A stretch of 64,000 bases of DNA. Source: Patescibacteria group bacterium. Its GTDB lineage: Bacteria > Patescibacteriota > Dojkabacteria > J137. This document shows, in pieces, positions 6,659 to 41,222 of this stretch. The notes below the pieces were generated by a model that had not been told where the DNA came from, did not search any database, and saw only the letters and a list, made by a program, of their open reading frames with translations. The position numbers were made by a program, and so were the translations under genes. The DNA lies in contig CAUJCN010000001.1 of the NCBI GenBank assembly GCA_963169855.1, forward strand, positions 175,645 to 239,644, in the 5' to 3' direction. Positions within the stretch are counted from its first letter, which is position 1; each line of letters starts with the position of its first letter.

Positions 6659-6875
6659 ATTCGTGATATAATATATATGTATAAATCATCAATATTTTGT
6701 GCTTTATACAGATCTTTAACAAGGAAGTAACTTACTACGAATTGGACCATTGGTTGTGGGCTTTAGGCGCTTCTGTTCCGTACTTGATACGGAATCTCAT
6801 GAGCATCTAAAGCTCACACCAGTACCAATTTCGGAGTACTGGCAAATCGGAGCACAACAAGGAGAAAGTTCTACC

Positions 6876-7358
6876 ATGAAGAAGCTCATCGTCATTTCGC
6901 TGCTCATCGTCGTTTCGCTGCTCGCCGTTTTCAACGCATTCGCCCAGGAACAAACCGTCGTCATCCAGAATGTCGTCGAGTGCCCCGTCACCACCATAGG
7001 CTGGTGGGGATTAACAGGAGAACTCATCAACGACGCCCCAACGAGGGACGTAATAGTCCATTGGGACGACACCAACCAACGCTCCGCGAAGGAACTCGGC
7101 GTCGACCCAGAGCAAGGGTGGATCGTCTGGTGCACGGAGAGCGATATGCTCAGCCGCGTTGCCACAGTCGAGGGCGAGCCGAACCGAATCACTATCGATG
7201 GTGACGAATATTGCCAAGTGGCGGGCTTCGTTACTAACCTCCCGGATCGACGAGTTGTTGGCGTTACGGCGGCCGCGGCGTATGCATTCACGGAATGTCT
7301 CGGGGAGACGATCGTCGAAAGCTCATACGTAAGGACTTTCGGGATCGTCTTCGACTAG
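6876..7358 (+). CDS. small secreted 4-Cys protein encoded in a GC-rich island
   Basis: RBS GGAGAAAG 7 nt before ATG; signal peptide MKKLIVISLLIVVSLLAVFNAFA; about 50-60% GC with high GC3, versus about 33% in flanks; ORF track lists 6750..7358 from a TTG. Confidence 0.5.
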   Translation: MKKLIVISLLIVVSLLAVFNAFAQEQTVVIQNVVECPVTTIGWWGLTGELINDAPTRDVIVHWDDTNQRSAKELGVDPEQGWIVWCTESDMLSRVATVEGEPNRITIDGDEYCQVAGFVTNLPDRRVVGVTAAAAYAFTECLGETIVESSYVRTFGIVFD

Positions 7359-33191: not shown

Positions 33192-33246
33192 TATCAATCC
33201 ATTAGCTAAGCAGAGATTAATTCTCGCTGACACGTTTTTCCCGAAT

Positions 33247-33272
33247 CGTCACATCTGCAAATGCAGGTGTCT
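33247..33272. repeat. hairpin inverted-repeat arm, left flank of second GIY-YIG gene
   Basis: CGTCACATCTGCAAATGCAGGTGTCT, internally palindromic. Confidence 0.65.
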
Positions 33273-33338
33273 CCTAAAAGAAGACGATTTTGTATCATAG
33301 AACAATGCTACTTATGCAACGACATAGTAAACTGCGTT

Positions 33339-33629
33339 ATGAGAAGTGGATACGTTTACATAATCAGCAACAGAATTTGTACAGTACTGTACATAGGAGT
33401 CACTAACAATCTAGTGCGACGTATCCAAGAACACAGAGATAATAAAACCGTAACCTCATTTTCATATAGATACAACATTAACAGACTTTTATACTTTGAA
33501 TATTATGAACGAATCAGTGATGCTATCGTTCGGGAGAAACAATTGAAAAAATGGAAACGTTCTTGGAAGTTAAAGTTAATAATAGAACTGAATCCTGCAT
33601 TCGAAGATTTGTTTAAGAATTTGCTTTAA
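33339..33629 (+). CDS. GIY-YIG nuclease family protein (COG2827/YhbQ-like)
   Basis: YVYIISNRICTVLYIGVTNNLVRRIQEH; start taken at MRSGYVY because ORF-track ATG 33261 lies inside the flanking hairpin. Confidence 0.6.
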   Translation: MRSGYVYIISNRICTVLYIGVTNNLVRRIQEHRDNKTVTSFSYRYNINRLLYFEYYERISDAIVREKQLKKWKRSWKLKLIIELNPAFEDLFKNLL

Positions 33630-33635
33630 CCCAAA

Positions 33636-33661
33636 AGACACCTGCATCCGCAGGTGTGACG
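33636..33661. repeat. hairpin inverted-repeat arm, right flank of second GIY-YIG gene
   Basis: AGACACCTGCATCCGCAGGTGTGACG; reverse complement matches left arm at 23/26 positions. Confidence 0.65.
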
Positions 33662-33711
33662 TTACTCATAAAACTGTTTTCTATTGAATGACTTCGTGGA
33701 AAGCCAAGATG

Positions 33712-35067
33712 TTACACTTCGAAGTTTTTTCCTCTAGCACCTTTTGTTAACTCAACTGGAAGATACCTTTCGAAACCTGGATCTTGTTTGTAAAGTGTTA
33801 GTAGTTTCTGCGCTGATGCAGGATCTCCAGTTCTTAGATACTTTACTTTTAGAGAGAAAAAGTAAGTATTCATCGCTTTCTTAATTTTTGGCAAATCGAT
33901 TTCCTTTTTTGACTTTCCAAGAACGTGGATTCTTTTTTCTAGCATTAGTAAATGCCAGTCTAGTTCTTCATCTGTATATTTTTCTAAATCATCTCCAATA
34001 TAGCTAGATAAGTCATCTCCAAAAACCAAAGTCAGCATTTCTATATCTGATGTTGTCAATTTAGAAATCAGTTTAACCATTTCTGATCCAAAGTATTTAT
34101 TCTTGAATGTTCTAGAATTCACTATAGCTGATTTTATTAACTCCGCTACTAATTCTTTTTCTTCAGCTGTTAAGTGTAGAGAGAATTCTGCATATGCACC
34201 AATAAAAACATCCCAATTTCCAGAAACTTCCATAACTACTCTTAGGAAGCTGTCGAATTTTTCTGTAATTCTTGAACGAATAAGTGGTTTGCTAAGATAT
34301 TCATTTATGAAACCTTTAAATAAATTTTGAATATACTCAGGTTCTACATCTTCAAGAGTTTTGCCTCGAAGAAATCCTTCTGCAAATTCTCGATCTAGAT
34401 ATGCTCCTGTTTCGATCAATAGATCTGCAATTTCTCGTTTCATGTAAGGTATTTTAATACCTCCCCTTTCTAAAATCTTAATTGCATAGTAACGGTGATC
34501 CTCAGGACTCAAATTGGGAATAATATACTCAATCAAGAAAGCCTGATAATATTGAGCGGCAGAATATTGCAAGTTGCCACTATATGCTTCTCTGTATTTA
34601 TCAACTCCTATCTTCAAGATGATATTTTTGATCCCCTCTAGAATATGTGGATCTGGAATGAAACCCTTTTTGCCCGCATCACTAAATTTTGGTTTTATAG
34701 AGATTTCTAAGTTTTCTTCGTCAGGAACAACTACTTCTGTATCGATATGTTCAGGATTCTCAGGACTATTTCTTAGCAGATCTTCAAAAGATGTAATATG
34801 TGGAACAAGAACTTTATTTCCTTTCAGAATTTCGTTCATTTGATCTGGATTTATGTGTGGTGCTGGTACTCCGCCAGAACTTCGGAGTTGTGATTCAGCA
34901 TCATCTATAAGTGGATCTTCCATATACTTATTATAGCAGGCAATCGCCCATATCACAATACTGGTAGTAATTATAGGAGTTTCAAATCTCTGCGAATAGA
35001 AATTTCTGATAACCAGCGAATAATTCCTCAAAGAGTTTCCAAGTATCCTCATCGGGTCTTTTTGCAT
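33712..35067 (-). CDS. hypothetical protein (true start possibly at internal Met, nt 34923)
   Basis: 451-aa ORF; the first 48 codons overlap the upstream gene. Confidence 0.4.
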   Translation of the reverse strand: MQKDPMRILGNSLRNYSLVIRNFYSQRFETPIITTSIVIWAIACYNKYMEDPLIDDAESQLRSSGGVPAPHINPDQMNEILKGNKVLVPHITSFEDLLRNSPENPEHIDTEVVVPDEENLEISIKPKFSDAGKKGFIPDPHILEGIKNIILKIGVDKYREAYSGNLQYSAAQYYQAFLIEYIIPNLSPEDHRYYAIKILERGGIKIPYMKREIADLLIETGAYLDREFAEGFLRGKTLEDVEPEYIQNLFKGFINEYLSKPLIRSRITEKFDSFLRVVMEVSGNWDVFIGAYAEFSLHLTAEEKELVAELIKSAIVNSRTFKNKYFGSEMVKLISKLTTSDIEMLTLVFGDDLSSYIGDDLEKYTDEELDWHLLMLEKRIHVLGKSKKEIDLPKIKKAMNTYFFSLKVKYLRTGDPASAQKLLTLYKQDPGFERYLPVELTKGARGKNFEV

Positions 35068-35614
35068 TCAAAACTCGTCCAAATGCGGTTCTTATCAAGT
35101 CTGGATTATCAACCAAGTCACCTTTAGACTTTCTAAAATCTCTTCCGTACCTATCTTGGTCTACAAATCTTCGTAGGAATTCTTCAAGTCTCTTTAGCAG
35201 AAGAGAGTGTTGTTCAACTATTTGAGGTTTCTTGCGTCTATTTTCTCTAAACTCAGCTACAGTTTTCCTAATATATTTTTCTAACAACCCTTTCATCACC
35301 ATAGTTCTTTGCATTTGATAGGTTTCTACGTAATCGGCAACATCTGGAAACTTTTTATCGTAGTCTTTGTAATCATTTAAGTAAGCTACTCTATGTACAA
35401 CAAATTCCCCAAGTATCTGCAAGAATCGATCAGCAGGACACATGTCTATAAGATTGAGGGTGAGAACTTCCCCGCTGGTTGGGTGAATAGTGCCAGCGTG
35501 CCTTTCGATATATTCTCGGTAAGGTCCGTTTGGGAGGCTTGGTGTTTCAGGCATAGGGGAATTATAGCAGGGGACTAGATACAATTTTGAAAAAACTGCA
35601 CATATTGTTATCAT
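34982..35614 (-). CDS. hypothetical protein
   Basis: 210-aa ORF. Confidence 0.35.
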   Translation of the reverse strand: MITICAVFSKLYLVPCYNSPMPETPSLPNGPYREYIERHAGTIHPTSGEVLTLNLIDMCPADRFLQILGEFVVHRVAYLNDYKDYDKKFPDVADYVETYQMQRTMVMKGLLEKYIRKTVAEFRENRRKKPQIVEQHSLLLKRLEEFLRRFVDQDRYGRDFRKSKGDLVDNPDLIRTAFGRVLNAKRPDEDTWKLFEELFAGYQKFLFAEI

Positions 35615-35704
35615 GTAACGATTATTATATAAAAATAAATTATGAGCGACACAATAACAAAAACAACTGCTCCGGCTCCGGACTCAATAACTAAGAAATA
35701 AACT

Positions 35705-36217
35705 ATGGGAAGTAATCTATCATCAAAAGCAGAGCAGAACTTTGAGTACATGAGAGGTGTGTATCAAGATACATTGAATCATGAAAACAGTAATGAGCTA
35801 CATATTTATGATTACTTAAGCCTTTCTGCATCCATTCTATTAGGGATTTCAGCCCTAGATCTTATTGATGTTTCAAGTGACAGTGAAAAATTTATATTGA
35901 TGCTTTATCTCCTATCTCTTTCTGCTGTTTTGGGAATAGGTTTTTATGGGAGACTACAGATTTACAACTTTTGGAAGCAATGTAAAAAATTTGATTTAGA
36001 AAATGTAAATAACTGGAACAAGACCTCTTCAGAAATATCATCAGCTAAAGATGAGCAAGAGGCAAAATTAATATATAGCGGTGCAAAATCAACTGAGGCT
36101 TCTATATCACTGCTCAAACGTACTTCAACTAGTGATGGTATGATTTACGCGCAAGCCTTTTTTATGATGGTTAGCTTAGTCAGCTTGATAATTCTATTCA
36201 CAGTAAAACTTTGGTAA
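35705..36217 (+). CDS. membrane hypothetical protein
   Basis: 170 aa, 3 TM helices. Confidence 0.4.
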   Translation: MGSNLSSKAEQNFEYMRGVYQDTLNHENSNELHIYDYLSLSASILLGISALDLIDVSSDSEKFILMLYLLSLSAVLGIGFYGRLQIYNFWKQCKKFDLENVNNWNKTSSEISSAKDEQEAKLIYSGAKSTEASISLLKRTSTSDGMIYAQAFFMMVSLVSLIILFTVKLW

Positions 36218-36641
36218 CCCTACGTATTCATTTTGTGCTAGATCTATTATCTAAATATGAGCTTGTATTTAGAAACTGGTCAAAGTAATCAAAATCAGGG
36301 TAACTGATAGGAGTAATATTTGTTACTGGCGGACAAATGTCCATTTGCAATAAAGTGCTTTAATACAGTTATATAAGATTATCCAATTCAAACGCATCTA
36401 TGCCAAATAATACCTTTTGACAGAATTCATAGCTTGCATTTAAACTATTGTATTTAATTTCTACATTATAAAAACACCAACAGAACTAAAATTCATCGAC
36501 TTATTTGCTGGGATTGGAGGTACTAGAATAGCATTTGAGAATGCTTGTAATAGTTTCAACATCAAAGCTCATTGCGTATTTACGTCTGAAATAAAGCCGT
36601 CAGCGATCAAAGTTTATAAAGATAACTTCAACAATGACTAT

Positions 36642-37775
36642 GTGAATGGTGATGTAACAAAAATTGATAGTAGGGATATTCCAGATTTTGACTTTCTCCT
36701 TGCAGGATTTCCTTGTCAACCATTCAGTGCTGCAGGTAATAGAAAGGGATTTTTAGATACTAGAGGTACACTATTTTTCGAGATTGAAAGAATATTAAAA
36801 GAAAAAAAACCTCAAGGATTTCTTTTAGAAAACGTTGAAGGACTAGTCAACCATGATAAAATCGATCCTAAAGCAAAGATGGGTAGAACCCTTGAAACAA
36901 TTCTCACTAAACTCGATTTACTTGAATACAAAACCTCTTGGAAAGTTTTAGATTCTTCAGAATTTGGAGTTCCTCAAAAAAGAAAAAGAATATATATAGT
37001 AGGTCATAAGAAAACTGCCATTGATTTAGAAAACTTTCCTAAGACGAAATCAAAATTAGATGAAATTTTAGAAAAGGGACTCGATGTTCTAAATACACCG
37101 TTCACAAACAAATTGTTAAGCAAGTTTAATGTCAAGGAACTTTACGGTAAATCTATAAAAGATAAACGCGGCGGGAATGAAAATATTCATAGTTGGGAAT
37201 TAGAACTTAAAGGGTCGGTTAGTAAGTTTCAATCCGAGCTACTTAATATTTTGCTGAAAGAAAGAAGAAAAAAAATTTGGGCTGTCAAAAAAGGAATTCA
37301 TTGGATGGATGGAATGTCTTTAACATTAGCCGAGATTCAAAGTTTCTTACAACCCAATCTCTTTCAAGAAGATAATCTGAAATCTGAATTAGATGATCTT
37401 GTTACTAAAGGATATCTGGTTTTCGAACACCCTAAAGATCTCAACTCATCTGGAATAAGAGATTACAGATATGACTTAGAACCAGGTTATAACATTGTTT
37501 CTGGGAAATTAAGTTTTGAAATCAGCAAGATTCTAGATCCAAATGGAATTTCGCCTACTTTAGTTGCTACTGATATCGAAAAAATTGCCATCCCTGATAT
37601 TAACGGGGTAAGAAGGTTAACTACTAGAGAAGGATTGCGATTATTTGGGTTTCCTGAAGATTTTCGAATAGATGTAAAAAAACGAGAAGCTTATGATCTT
37701 CTAGGAAACACTGTGGTAGTAACTGTGGTGCAGAAGGTTGCAGAAAGGATACTACAAAGTATTGCCAGTATGTGA
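36642..37775 (+). CDS. DNA (cytosine-5)-methyltransferase; homology continues in frame upstream to about 36444 without an ATG/GTG/TTG
   Basis: PCQPFS (motif IV), ENV (VI), QKRKR (VIII), GNTVVVTV (X); in-frame upstream codons encode KFIDLFAGIGG (motif I). Confidence 0.75.
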   Translation: MNGDVTKIDSRDIPDFDFLLAGFPCQPFSAAGNRKGFLDTRGTLFFEIERILKEKKPQGFLLENVEGLVNHDKIDPKAKMGRTLETILTKLDLLEYKTSWKVLDSSEFGVPQKRKRIYIVGHKKTAIDLENFPKTKSKLDEILEKGLDVLNTPFTNKLLSKFNVKELYGKSIKDKRGGNENIHSWELELKGSVSKFQSELLNILLKERRKKIWAVKKGIHWMDGMSLTLAEIQSFLQPNLFQEDNLKSELDDLVTKGYLVFEHPKDLNSSGIRDYRYDLEPGYNIVSGKLSFEISKILDPNGISPTLVATDIEKIAIPDINGVRRLTTREGLRLFGFPEDFRIDVKKREAYDLLGNTVVVTVVQKVAERILQSIASM

Positions 37776-38435
37776 CAAGTAATTTTCTTTTACTTTTACT
37801 AACCAATCACTGCTTGCTAATGAAGTCTTGGGGTATTTCATCAGTACTGAATAAAGAGCTTCAACAAAAGACTTCCGAGAGTCGAAAATCTTAAACTTGC
37901 TTTTACCTGATGGATTTCTAAATATACTTGCAGGTCTTATATTATAAATGACGTCTCTTTTTATTTGAAATCTAATTGCGTATCTTTCTCCAGGACAAGT
38001 TATTTCCCATATTTTTTTTAAAAAAATATTATTAACTTTAAAGATCCCCTCTCTCAAAGTGTATGAGAATATAAGGTAATCAGCATCTAGTCTGTATGAA
38101 TCTGAAAGCAAGGAGTCACAGTAGGATTCAAAGTTCGCAATATCAAAGTTTGCGTCGCCGTCGTAATCGAAAACCTTTATTTCGAGAAGATCTTTGGTAG
38201 TGCTCAACGGAGACATGTAAAAGTCTGGAAATTCTTGAGTATTCTCAGGAGATGCTGCTTCAATACCACTTTGATTCATCCATGCCAGTAACCAATTTTG
38301 AAAAATGTACCCAACTGCACTTTTGTCAGTTAAAGTATTAGATACACCTAAAAAATCAAATCGAGATTGTCCAGAATTCTCAAGAATCCCACTTTCTTTT
38401 AGTCTTTTTACAAGTTCTTGCGCTGTAATAACCAT
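37752..38435 (-). CDS. putative type II restriction endonuclease (convergent partner of the MTase)
   Basis: 24-bp convergent overlap with MTase; candidate PD-(D/E)xK element D...LLEIKVFD. Confidence 0.4.
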   Translation of the reverse strand: MVITAQELVKRLKESGILENSGQSRFDFLGVSNTLTDKSAVGYIFQNWLLAWMNQSGIEAASPENTQEFPDFYMSPLSTTKDLLEIKVFDYDGDANFDIANFESYCDSLLSDSYRLDADYLIFSYTLREGIFKVNNIFLKKIWEITCPGERYAIRFQIKRDVIYNIRPASIFRNPSGKSKFKIFDSRKSFVEALYSVLMKYPKTSLASSDWLVKVKENYLSHTGNTL

Positions 38436-38550
38436 ATATCCTTGTTTATATGCATTAAGTATACTACATCAGGATGTGATTCGTGGATTGAATCTCTGAT
38501 ACTTTGAAGTTGCCATGAGTGTTTTTCTGGGTCTTATTCTGACATTCTTA

Positions 38551-39357
38551 CTATTGATTTGTTACTTCGTTTATGTACTTCATCAGAGAGGCTAGTTGAT
38601 AGATCAAGAATTCATTTTCTTCTTCAGATATATCTCCATCGTTATGTTTACTATTGTTATTAAAGAAATAATCAAGTTTTGAAAATGTTCCCATTATTAT
38701 TTCTCTAATGAATGCATCTCTGTTATCCTTTTTTAAAAGCTTTCCTAGTTCTACTATATTTTGTTTTAACCCTTTTTTATTTCCCAACTGTGATCTCAGA
38801 AATTCCTCTAACGATCTTCTTATAGATTCTGCAGATTTAATAAAATTCTTTTCGTAGTAGAATTTTAAAGCATCCAATAAATGCTTATTCGAGTTTCCAC
38901 TAAGAAAGGAAAGTGTAGTATCTACCTCCTCGTCTAAGAATTTCTCACCCTTAGGAACTGTAATTACTTGTTTTTTTAATACTTTTATATCAACCTCCAA
39001 CCTCGATAACTGTAAGGATCGGAGCAGACTTTTTATATAAAGGCCTCTTATGTGATCACTGGAAAACTCACTTCTAAAAATGATTTCAATCTTTCTGAAA
39101 AATTCAGCAATGTTATTTTCTACATCCAGACTGTCAGAAACATTTTTACTTATAGGTTCAGAAAAAGCATCATATCGATCAGGATCTTGCCACACTTCAT
39201 CTATAGCCAATTCCATACAGTATTGATACACTCCTAATTTTGTCATTGCTGAATCAATATTTTTAAAATCGTTCATCAATCTAATTTTAAATTTGCGGAA
39301 TTCATCTTCTGGATTAACTGTAGTATTAATTTTCCATCTACGATCAAAGTCCGACAT
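38551..39357 (-). CDS. hypothetical protein adjacent to R-M pair
   Basis: 268-aa ORF. Confidence 0.4.
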   Translation of the reverse strand: MSDFDRRWKINTTVNPEDEFRKFKIRLMNDFKNIDSAMTKLGVYQYCMELAIDEVWQDPDRYDAFSEPISKNVSDSLDVENNIAEFFRKIEIIFRSEFSSDHIRGLYIKSLLRSLQLSRLEVDIKVLKKQVITVPKGEKFLDEEVDTTLSFLSGNSNKHLLDALKFYYEKNFIKSAESIRRSLEEFLRSQLGNKKGLKQNIVELGKLLKKDNRDAFIREIIMGTFSKLDYFFNNNSKHNDGDISEEENEFLIYQLASLMKYINEVTNQ

Positions 39358-39359
39358 AT

Positions 39360-41222
39360 TTACTCCCCCTTCCTCAACTCATACATCCTCACAATCTCCT
39401 CAACACTATTAGGGTAATCCTTATCTCGATTCCAAATCTTTAATCTTGGAAATCGAATAGACAACCCTTTTGTTGAATCATCGTTTTTTACTTTTGCAGG
39501 AATTCCTTTCGCTGCTGTGTGGTTTGGGCTTCTTGTAATTTCGTCTGCAACAATTTCCATAACTAATTTTGGTTTTACCCAAACGTCTGGAACTAAAGTT
39601 TTATCTACAACATAGTTTTCTGGTTTCTCGGCCACGAAATGTTTCTGTAAGTCTGCATTAATTGTTGGAGCTTGTTCATCTGTAAATCCGCTTCCAACTT
39701 TTCCAATAGAGTAGTAGGTATCGTTACTTGCATCGTAGACCCCTGCCAACATCGCACCAAATCCGTATTTATTTCTCGCACCTTGTCCGTAGAAATATCC
39801 CAACACAACAACGTCGATTGTATCTACCAAGTGACTTTGAGTATTAGCCTTCAGCTTAATCCATTTGAAATTTCTTGTTCCAGGTTCGTATGTAGATTTT
39901 TCTTCTTTAGTAATTATTCCTTCTAAACCTGCATTCACTTTGCTGAAGAAATATTCTTCCAACTCAGCTTCTGATTGCATTTGTTTTGTCTCCAGCATCT
40001 TTAATGAGCCCTGAGCTTTGAGCTTTGAGCTTTGAGCTTCCTCCTTAGAGTTCTGAGAAAGCAAAGACTCCAGTATTCTCAGCCGTTCCTCTATCGGTTC
40101 CTGAGTTATATCTTTTCCATTCAAATACAAAACATCAAAACACATTGCTCGGACAGGAATATCTTTTGCATAAGTTTCCACATCGTACTTTCTTCTTCGC
40201 TGCATTGTTTCCTGATAAGTTTTGTAATTACCATCTTCTTCTACACCAATAATTTCTGAATCCAAAACAACAGAATCAACACCAAGATTTTTTACAGATT
40301 CCAAAAGCTCTGGGAAGTTGTCTGTAAGTCTTTCCATATTTCGACTGTAGACTTCGGCCTCACCAGTTTTTTTATCAAAATGAATTTGACCACGTAGTCC
40401 ATCCAACTTTGGCTGAACAAAACACTTCGGCATTCTTTCCCAAACAGAAGCTGCAGAATCTTCTCGCTCCACAAGCTTAGATGCGATTGGAACTCCAGGA
40501 ACAATTTTAATTTTTGATAGATTTTCAATTGCTGAAGATTTATCAGTGAGAATAATTTCCGCAAGTTGACCAGCATCTGCTCTTGCTCCAAAAGCCTGAT
40601 CAATTAATTTTCTTGTAGATTTATCTCCAGACACAACAAAAGAAAGAGAGTCGAGTAGAGTTTTGTCGCTAGCACCAAGCCTTAAGTCTCCTAAAATAAT
40701 TCTAGTTGTGAATTTAATTTCCTGAGGTTCAAGAATTCTGAAAAGGTTTTCGTACAATTTTAATTTTGCATCTTGAGATCCTTTCCCAGAAGTTTGAGTT
40801 ATTTTAATTAAGAATGAGTGTAGTTCTTCGATAGTTTCGACTTTGATGTCTGTCACATCGAGCTTGTCGAGATGTGTTTCACCATTTTGGTTATCATGCT
40901 TCGACAGGCTCAGCATGACATCTCCTTTGAATGTTTCTCGAATTTCTGCTGCAACATTCCCCATATCCCCAAGTTTACCCAACATCGACTTAACATCTTC
41001 AGAAGTAAATTCCTGAAGTTTTCTGATAATCATTTTGTCTGAGAAGTTGAATTCAATCGGCTCGAATTTTGGTGCAACTCTACCTTGAAGAAAGTAGATA
41101 AAAAATCGAGCTTCTTTTGGTGAAAGCTGGGTTAGAAAATCCGCGGTTAAAGTGGTTAGATCGTTTCTAGAACTTGTGGTTTCGAGTTTGTTTAAAAAAG
41201 CTGAGAGTTCTGTTAGTTTCAT
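39360..41222 (-). CDS. ATP-dependent DNA ligase
   Basis: adenylation motif I KLDGLRGQIH, EGIITK, WIKLK motifs. Confidence 0.8.
   Translation of the reverse strand: MKLTELSAFLNKLETTSSRNDLTTLTADFLTQLSPKEARFFIYFLQGRVAPKFEPIEFNFSDKMIIRKLQEFTSEDVKSMLGKLGDMGNVAAEIRETFKGDVMLSLSKHDNQNGETHLDKLDVTDIKVETIEELHSFLIKITQTSGKGSQDAKLKLYENLFRILEPQEIKFTTRIILGDLRLGASDKTLLDSLSFVVSGDKSTRKLIDQAFGARADAGQLAEIILTDKSSAIENLSKIKIVPGVPIASKLVEREDSAASVWERMPKCFVQPKLDGLRGQIHFDKKTGEAEVYSRNMERLTDNFPELLESVKNLGVDSVVLDSEIIGVEEDGNYKTYQETMQRRRKYDVETYAKDIPVRAMCFDVLYLNGKDITQEPIEERLRILESLLSQNSKEEAQSSKLKAQGSLKMLETKQMQSEAELEEYFFSKVNAGLEGIITKEEKSTYEPGTRNFKWIKLKANTQSHLVDTIDVVVLGYFYGQGARNKYGFGAMLAGVYDASNDTYYSIGKVGSGFTDEQAPTINADLQKHFVAEKPENYVVDKTLVPDVWVKPKLVMEIVADEITRSPNHTAAKGIPAKVKNDDSTKGLSIRFPRLKIWNRDKDYPNSVEEIVRMYELRKGE
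40006..40040. repeat. heptanucleotide tandem repeat (GAGCTTT)n inside ligase CDS
   Basis: gagccct gagcttt gagcttt gagcttt gagcttc; encodes EAQSSKLKAQGSL on coding strand. Confidence 0.7.
40895..40920. repeat. hairpin-family copy embedded in ligase CDS
   Basis: CATGCTTCGACAGGCTCAGCATGACA; the 12-mer TCGACAGGCTCA is also at 47943 and, reverse-complemented, at 7569. Confidence 0.6.

Follow-up and report, generated by a model that had tools for sequence, protein, structure and literature searches.

A predicted Type IIP restriction-modification pair of the NlaIV/NgoBV kind in a Dojkabacteria-like bacterium, with a methyltransferase gene that lacks a canonical start codon

Introduction

The Neisseria restriction endonuclease NlaIV, which cuts GGNNCC and for which residues D74, E87 and K89 are essential, belongs to a restriction-modification (R-M) system whose genes nlaIV_E and nlaIV_M both carry homopolymers comparable to those described below; nlaIV_E phase-varies. 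We analyzed a stretch of 64,000 nt from contig CAUJCN010000001.1 of a Patescibacteria group bacterium (positions 175,645 to 239,644 of the forward strand), here called the window, which encodes a predicted R-M pair of the same family in two convergent genes. The methyltransferase (M) gene of this pair is preserved throughout its length, and yet it has no ATG, GTG or TTG codon ahead of motif I, which binds S-adenosylmethionine (SAM).

The start codons of known genes provide the background for this observation. In the BspRI R-M system, the endonuclease (R) gene begins with TTG and the M gene with ATG, which is the safe arrangement. In Escherichia coli, AUU is the natural start codon of infC and pcnB, and AUA and AUU initiate translation at 1–2% of the level of AUG, even behind a strong ribosome-binding site.

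Results

The methyltransferase frame has no canonical start before motif I

The M gene is located on the plus strand, in a frame that is closed upstream by an in-frame TAA (36441-36443, +), comprises 443 codons from stop to stop and ends at TGA (37773-37775, +). After the TAA this frame encodes TIVFNFYIIKTPTELKFIDLFAGIGG. Its first codons, ACT ATT GTA TTT AAT TTC TAC (TIVFNFY), are followed by ATT ATA (II), by AAA ACA CCA ACA GAA CTA (KTPTEL) and by AAA TTC ATC GAC TTA TTT GCT GGG ATT GGA GGT, which specify the SAM-binding motif I, KFIDLFAGIGG (36489-36521, +), recognized from both sequence and alignment.

We found no ATG, GTG or TTG in this frame between the TAA and position 36642; the near-cognate codons present are ATT 36447, ATT 36465, ATA 36468 and ATC 36495. 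The first canonical start is a GTG (36642-36644, +), separated from the TAA by 66 codons and used by public gene calls, which give a product of 377 amino acids (aa) without motif I. An ATG at 36640 belongs to another frame; within the stop-to-stop frame, ATG first occurs as codon 146, near 36879. Position 1 of the PF00145 profile matches residue 15 of the stop-to-stop frame, which means that a start at GTG 36642 would remove motif I.

A preliminary description of this DNA had placed motif I upstream of any canonical start, had named ATT and ATA as the only start candidates before it, and had concluded that translation from 36642 would lose the SAM-binding motif; the read-out of the frame and the PF00145 alignment agree with these statements. 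It had also located the first canonical codon correctly at 36642, but this codon is a GTG and not, as described, an ATG.

We screened the window for open reading frames (ORFs) of 120 codons or more in which the upstream stop is followed by over 23 codons without a start. Of the ORFs of this kind, the M gene is the sole real gene; the two others are shadow ORFs. Genome-wide use of non-canonical starts, or of an alternative genetic code, was considered and rejected, since the other ORFs have ATG, GTG or TTG no more than 23 codons from the upstream stop and long ORFs are obtained under translation table 11. An infC gene with an AUU start is absent from the position downstream of thrS in the window, where the next gene has an ATG and does not resemble the initiation factor IF3.

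The methyltransferase is otherwise complete

Profile searches and alignment identified the product of the M gene (36468-37775, +; 435 codons if counted from ATA 36468) as a C5-cytosine DNA methyltransferase. The protein matches PF00145 with an E-value of 3.3e-82 and 277 bits (cut-off 22) over profile positions 1-323 of 324, and TIGR00675 with 354.6 bits (cut-off 100.65). The earlier designation of the pair as Dcm-type is correct at the level of the superfamily that these two models define. It does not extend to the Dcm subfamily: the score against model NF007772 is 135.6 bits, below its cut-off of 710, a scan of nine neighbouring proteins gave no match to Vsr, and the partner enzyme belongs to the NgoBV/NlaIV family.

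In an alignment of 24 sequences (the query and 23 homologues), the methyltransferase retains 127 of 127 invariant columns. The FAGIGG, GFPCQPFS, LLENVEGL, QKRKR and LLGNTVVV sequences (motifs I, IV, VI, VIII and X) sit at such columns, as does the Pro-Cys-Gln of motif IV with the catalytic cysteine (P90, C91 and Q92; 36711-36719, +). The protein has a single private change, which is conservative (V>I), while the homologues themselves have between 0 and 6. Besides the start, no further lesion was found across 1.3 kb. As far as can be judged from its sequence, the plus-strand gene thus encodes a C5-cytosine DNA methyltransferase that is complete apart from its canonical start.

The start-less allele is reproducible and is not found in homologous loci

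We compared the M gene with the 80 best homologous loci from a scan of genome contigs (one genome per species), among which the source genome did not appear. A canonical start is present ahead of motif I in all 70 loci that could be evaluated; none of the 70 is start-less, and the near-cognate start is shared by none. The homologues mostly start with an ATG located 2–12 codons before FIDLF, and a few of the genes have longer N-terminal extensions.

In the alignment, the ATT-ATA pair (36465-36470, +) occupies the position of the homologues' initiator ATG. Opposite ATA 36468 stands the Met of MKTKTIKF (P0011) and of MKTNTIRV (P0036), and opposite ATT 36465 that of MINKKKTIK (P0010); moreover, ATA-AAA resembles the ATG-AAA start of at least 8 of 50 host genes in the window. 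The simplest history suggested by the alignment of ATA 36468 with the homologues' Met is a point change, ATG>ATA (or ATG>ATT). The comparison strongly supports a single base change by which an ancestral ATG would have become ATA (36468), or a neighbouring codon ATT (36465).

Two independent run assemblies from Logan, ERR10655385 and ERR10655382, show no difference from the window along 7,134 and 5,029 nt. The 377-aa call from the GTG is on record for 6–7 contigs, its product (P0001) is recorded with NCBI and Logan as sources, and every contig with this gene has the same allele. The protein collection contained no longer or ATG-initiated allele of the methyltransferase, the next best homologue being 63–64% identical, and the 5′ coding stretch had no match in JGI metagenome contigs.

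The adjacent gene encodes an endonuclease of the NgoBV/NlaIV family

The gene convergent with the M gene (37752-38435, −) encodes a protein of 227 aa that was identified, by profile and alignment, as a Type II restriction endonuclease of the NgoBV/NlaIV family. It starts with an ATG preceded by AAGGA, which resembles a Shine-Dalgarno (SD) sequence, and its 3′ end overlaps that of the M gene by 24 bp (37752-37775, both strands). The protein matches PF09564 (RE_NgoBV) with an E-value of 6e-44 and 150.7 bits (gathering score 25) over profile positions 3-224 of 238, and the PADLOC model REase_II with 8e-41. An exhaustive HMMER search yielded 287 relatives.

When aligned with 36 relatives, the endonuclease was found to keep every invariant and near-invariant position, with 0 private deviations. 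The PD-(D/E)XK residues are conserved as P-D71...E85-x-K87 (D71, 38223-38225; E85, 38181-38183; K87, 38175-38177) and are equivalent to D74, E87 and K89 of NlaIV. On this evidence the endonuclease looks catalytically competent.

An NgoBV-like endonuclease gene adjoins the methyltransferase homologue in 38 other loci, in convergent or co-directional orientation, and these loci span Bacteroidota, cyanobacteria, Helicobacter, Mycoplasmopsis, Saccharibacteria and others. The conserved adjacency argues that the two genes form a cognate pair of the NlaIV/NgoBV kind. Together with the PF09564 match, it bears out the earlier suggestion that the convergent 227-aa ORF, with its 24-bp overlap, is the likely cognate endonuclease. 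The cassette is therefore classified as a predicted Type IIP R-M system of this kind, made up of a 5-methylcytosine (m5C) methyltransferase and a PD-(D/E)XK endonuclease.

From this family membership we infer that the target is GGNNCC. The window contains 26 GGNNCC sites, while 49–57 are expected from Markov models of order 1–3 (z = −3.4 to −4.5; ratio 0.45–0.53), a stronger depletion than that of any other of the 16 XYNNY'X' palindromes; for CCNNGG, a control of matched composition, the ratio is 0.9. The depletion was considered as proof of activity of the system and was downgraded, since relatives are partly depleted too. The second most depleted palindrome in the window is CGNNCG, with a ratio of 0.55–0.57 even with dinucleotide correction.

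Upstream region and translation signals

The top-scoring promoter-like site upstream of the M gene (10/12) is TTGACA-18 nt-TAAACT (36417-36446, +). It implies a transcript start near 36453 and a leader of 12–15 nt without an SD sequence; in the minimum-free-energy fold, the first 47 nt of the predicted transcript are unpaired. Because the region is not enriched for promoter-like matches (13 found against 10.4 expected), this site is weak evidence for a promoter.

All three frames of the region 36218-36443 are closed by stops, and two in-frame stops lie no more than 12 codons upstream of the M gene. The only upstream start belongs to a 7-codon ORF (36448-36471, +) that begins with TTG, upstream of the predicted transcript start, and whose TAA overlaps ATA 36468. 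With the ancestral ATG, the junction of this mini-ORF and the M gene would read ATGA, a typical coupling overlap, which is probably a coincidence. No canonical slippery heptamer (X XXY YYZ) was seen upstream of the M gene.

Translation signals of the host were assessed in 50 genes of the window. An SD-like 4-mer precedes 5 of them, including the endonuclease gene and its neighbour. A TAnnnT box is located exactly 6 nt before the start in 10 of the 50 (background of approx. 2 per position); this sharp peak of −10-like boxes is the signature of leaderless mRNAs and indicates that they are widespread in this host. We considered a leaderless transcript for the M gene as well and rejected it: the hexamer 6 nt before ATT 36465 is TTTAAT, without the conserved A2, and that before ATA 36468 is AATTTC. 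Since both hexamers lack the host pattern, the M gene does not fit the leaderless class.

Homopolymer tracts within the cassette

The M gene contains two A8 tracts (36802-36809, +, encoding KEKKP, and 37268-37275, +), and the endonuclease gene contains a T8A7 tract (38012-38026, −, encoding FLKKIW). Three of the five A/T homopolymers of at least 8 nt in the window thus fall inside the 2-kb R-M cassette (binomial P approx. 3e-4, calculated post hoc). The cassette homopolymers encode conserved Lys-Lys motifs, and the tract lengths are equal in both assemblies compared.

Host and genomic context

The window is cellular DNA of approx. 35% G+C. Its genes include those for prolyl-, alanyl- and threonyl-tRNA synthetases, MutL, ribonucleotide reductase, a P-type ATPase and a 620-aa ATP-dependent ligase, along with many ORFans. 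The nearest named homologues of the alanyl-tRNA synthetase are from Candidatus Dojkabacteria, a lineage of the candidate phyla radiation (CPR), and the host is a Dojkabacteria-like CPR bacterium.

The cassette is part of an islet of approx. 6 kb (33200-39359), located between the conserved P-type ATPase/288-aa gene and the ATP-dependent DNA ligase gene, which contains the M and endonuclease genes, a PDC-S32-like gene and four ORFans (122, 451, 210 and 170 aa). The spacing between the ATPase and ligase genes is 7.1 kb in the window and approx. 1.5 kb in a more distant relative (L086), and no counterparts of the islet genes were found in the fetched loci of the relatives L083, L084 and L086. The loci of L083 and L084 end inside the ligase gene, and L086 alone spans the islet junction. 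The short spacing in L086, together with the lack of counterparts in the relatives, shows the R-M pair to lie in a lineage-specific islet, and the cassette was probably acquired horizontally.

The PDC-S32-like gene (38551-39357, −), which lies between the endonuclease and ligase genes, encodes a protein of 268 aa. This protein matches PDC-S32, a candidate defence family of PADLOC (3e-13), and no Pfam or NCBIfam model; the SD-like site of the gene, GGGGGAG, is the strongest of the window. The ligase (39360-41222, −; 620 aa) is a three-domain, ATP-dependent enzyme of the Lig1/archaeal type (TIGR00574) encoded in a bacterial genome, and its gene is conserved at this position beside the islet in all three relatives examined.

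Under first-ATG calls, the 451-aa and 210-aa ORFs of the islet (33712-35614, −) overlap by 86 nt. The public call for the former is 403 aa, which suggests that its true start is probably an internal ATG. Elsewhere in the window, the segment 6300-7900 has a G+C content of 0.41, against approx. 0.34, and carries overlapping ORFs on both strands (6750-7358, + and 6797-7291, −). An RNA gene was considered for this patch and rejected, as no Rfam family matched it at E-values of up to 0.1.

Discussion

The question raised by this locus is whether the methyltransferase is made. We tentatively favour, over a recent loss of the start that left a pseudogene, the reading that translation is weakly initiated at AUA or AUU. 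The TTGACA/TAAACT promoter would give rise to a short leader, rich in A/U and free of structure, on which AUA or AUU would base-pair with the initiator tRNA, so that the enzyme might be produced at a few percent of the normal rate. In a genome that is small, replicates slowly and has few GGNNCC sites, such a trickle would suffice for protection from the intact endonuclease, which would probably be expressed by read-through from the ligase operon on the other strand.

This reading is supported by the absence of decay in either gene and by the fixation of the allele in all sampled contigs. Also in its favour are the lack of an ATG allele in the protein collection and the JGI contigs, the pairing with an NgoBV-like endonuclease gene in 38 other loci, the canonical starts of the 70 homologous loci, the depletion of GGNNCC in the window, the promoter-like site ahead of the M gene and the unpaired 5′ end of the predicted transcript. 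Loss of a methyltransferase beside an active endonuclease is normally lethal, and the intact endonuclease therefore argues that the methyltransferase is still expressed. Very little enzyme might suffice, since target sites are few (26 in 64 kb) and the host, as a CPR cell, can be expected to grow slowly and to have a small genome.

Several observations weigh against weak initiation. Initiation at near-cognate codons is very weak, and the M gene lacks an SD sequence that could make up for this; on leaderless or short-leader mRNAs, such codons are drastically worse. The 70 loci of relatives, none of which has a near-cognate start, give no evolutionary sign of selection for one, and ATG, GTG or TTG starts all other genes of the window. 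The combination of a weak start on the M gene with an ATG and AAGGA on the endonuclease gene reverses the safe arrangement of BspRI. Finally, the GGNNCC ratio is 0.52–0.79 (from small counts) in relatives whose fetched loci lack the cassette, and the depletion in the window need not stem from the cassette. It is conceivable, though less likely than not, that the AUA/AUU start is no damage and acts as a working signal, tolerated or even selected, that holds the methyltransferase at a very low set-point in a CPR host with few SD sites and many leaderless genes.

The chief rival to weak initiation, which we regard as a serious possibility although not as the preferred one, is that the change of ATG to ATA (or ATT) silenced the M gene too recently for a second lesion to have appeared. 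The low efficiency of near-cognate codons (approx. 1–2% of that of AUG, and lower still where the leader is short or absent), the missing SD sequence and the canonical starts of every relative all speak for such a pseudogene, as does the position of this lineage-specific cassette in a variable islet, where R-M systems turn over fast. Survival of the cell would then require that the endonuclease is unexpressed, inactive in a way invisible in the sequence or phase-varied off, or that GGNNCC is covered by another methyltransferase; also in favour of the pseudogene are the lack of any promoter-like site directly upstream of the endonuclease gene and the enrichment of both genes in slippage-prone A8/T8 tracts. 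However, two hidden events are needed here (loss of the M start, plus a silent endonuclease or a back-up methyltransferase) instead of one, and the decay of R-M systems usually takes the R gene first, whereas this endonuclease has kept its catalytic residues, its ATG, its SD-like site and an unblemished alignment. The lack of any other damage along the M gene, and an allele that is the same in every contig carrying it, likewise fit poorly with a dead gene.

The remaining explanations are much less probable than either of these. Recoding, in which ribosomes would enter the M frame from an upstream ORF through a programmed frameshift, read-through of a stop or reinitiation after termination, is very unlikely; frameshift regulation was among the options of the preliminary description. 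The overlap of the mini-ORF stop with ATA 36468, and the ATGA that the ancestral codon would have formed, are in its favour, but the predicted transcript starts downstream of the TTG of the mini-ORF, no other ORF with a canonical start exists in a region full of stops, and two in-frame stops lie close upstream. With the upstream frames closed and no slippery site seen, frameshift entry has nothing to work with. The same description had allowed that a sequencing error might have removed an ATG; such an artefact, whether of sequencing or of assembly, is extremely unlikely and has no evidence in its favour: two independent run assemblies agree with the window at every base over 5–7 kb, so that the missing start is not an assembly error, and the same truncated call recurs on 6–7 contigs. 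Least credible of all is that the annotated 377-aa product from GTG 36642, for which the entries under NCBI and Logan might be cited, is a real, functional protein. Motif I is missing from it, as are roughly the first 50 conserved residues (among them invariant I18 to K51, A54 and F62); the Pfam and TIGR matches begin at residue 15 of the longer frame; and the 66 upstream codons are conserved as protein, unlike a non-coding leader.

An active methyltransferase would mean that an essential protective enzyme depends, in nature, on initiation at AUA/AUU, and the locus would then give a first insight into how stringently start codons are chosen in CPR bacteria, a group not amenable to culture. A working AUA/AUU start would point either to unusually permissive start selection in this lineage or to a handful of methyltransferase molecules being enough. 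If the methyltransferase is dead, the locus would capture an R-M system in the course of decay, with the unusual feature that the M gene was affected first. The public 377-aa gene call should not be taken at face value: as it lacks the SAM-binding motif, surveys of methyltransferases or R-M systems in CPR genomes could misclassify the gene as truncated or non-functional.

Of the known systems, the closest are NlaIV and NgoBV of Neisseria, with which the locus shares an endonuclease of the Pfam family RE_NgoBV, a D...ExK triad matching D74/E87/K89 of NlaIV, an adjacent C5-cytosine methyltransferase and homopolymer tracts in both genes. It differs from them in the convergent arrangement of the M and R genes with a 24-bp overlap, in its CPR host and in the missing canonical start, and, unlike nlaIV_E, its tract lengths are the same in the two assemblies compared. 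Like E. coli Dcm, the methyltransferase is a member of the C5-methyltransferase superfamily (TIGR00675, PF00145); unlike Dcm/Vsr, which acts at CCWGG, it scores far below the Dcm subfamily cut-off (135.6 against 710 bits with NF007772), has no Vsr among the scanned neighbours and is partnered by a restriction enzyme.

As in infC and pcnB of E. coli, AUU or AUA would be the only initiator available, which would give low, IF3-sensitive expression; but the AUU of infC is conserved in orthologues and has a normal ribosome-binding site, whereas the codon found here is unshared and has no SD sequence. As in BspRI, start-codon strength differs between the two genes of one R-M pair, but the polarity is reversed, and the weak or absent start is on the protective methyltransferase, which is the risky arrangement. 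The system is thus an unremarkable representative of a familiar R-M family, found in a host that has been studied less, and the missing start codon is its one real, reproducible oddity.

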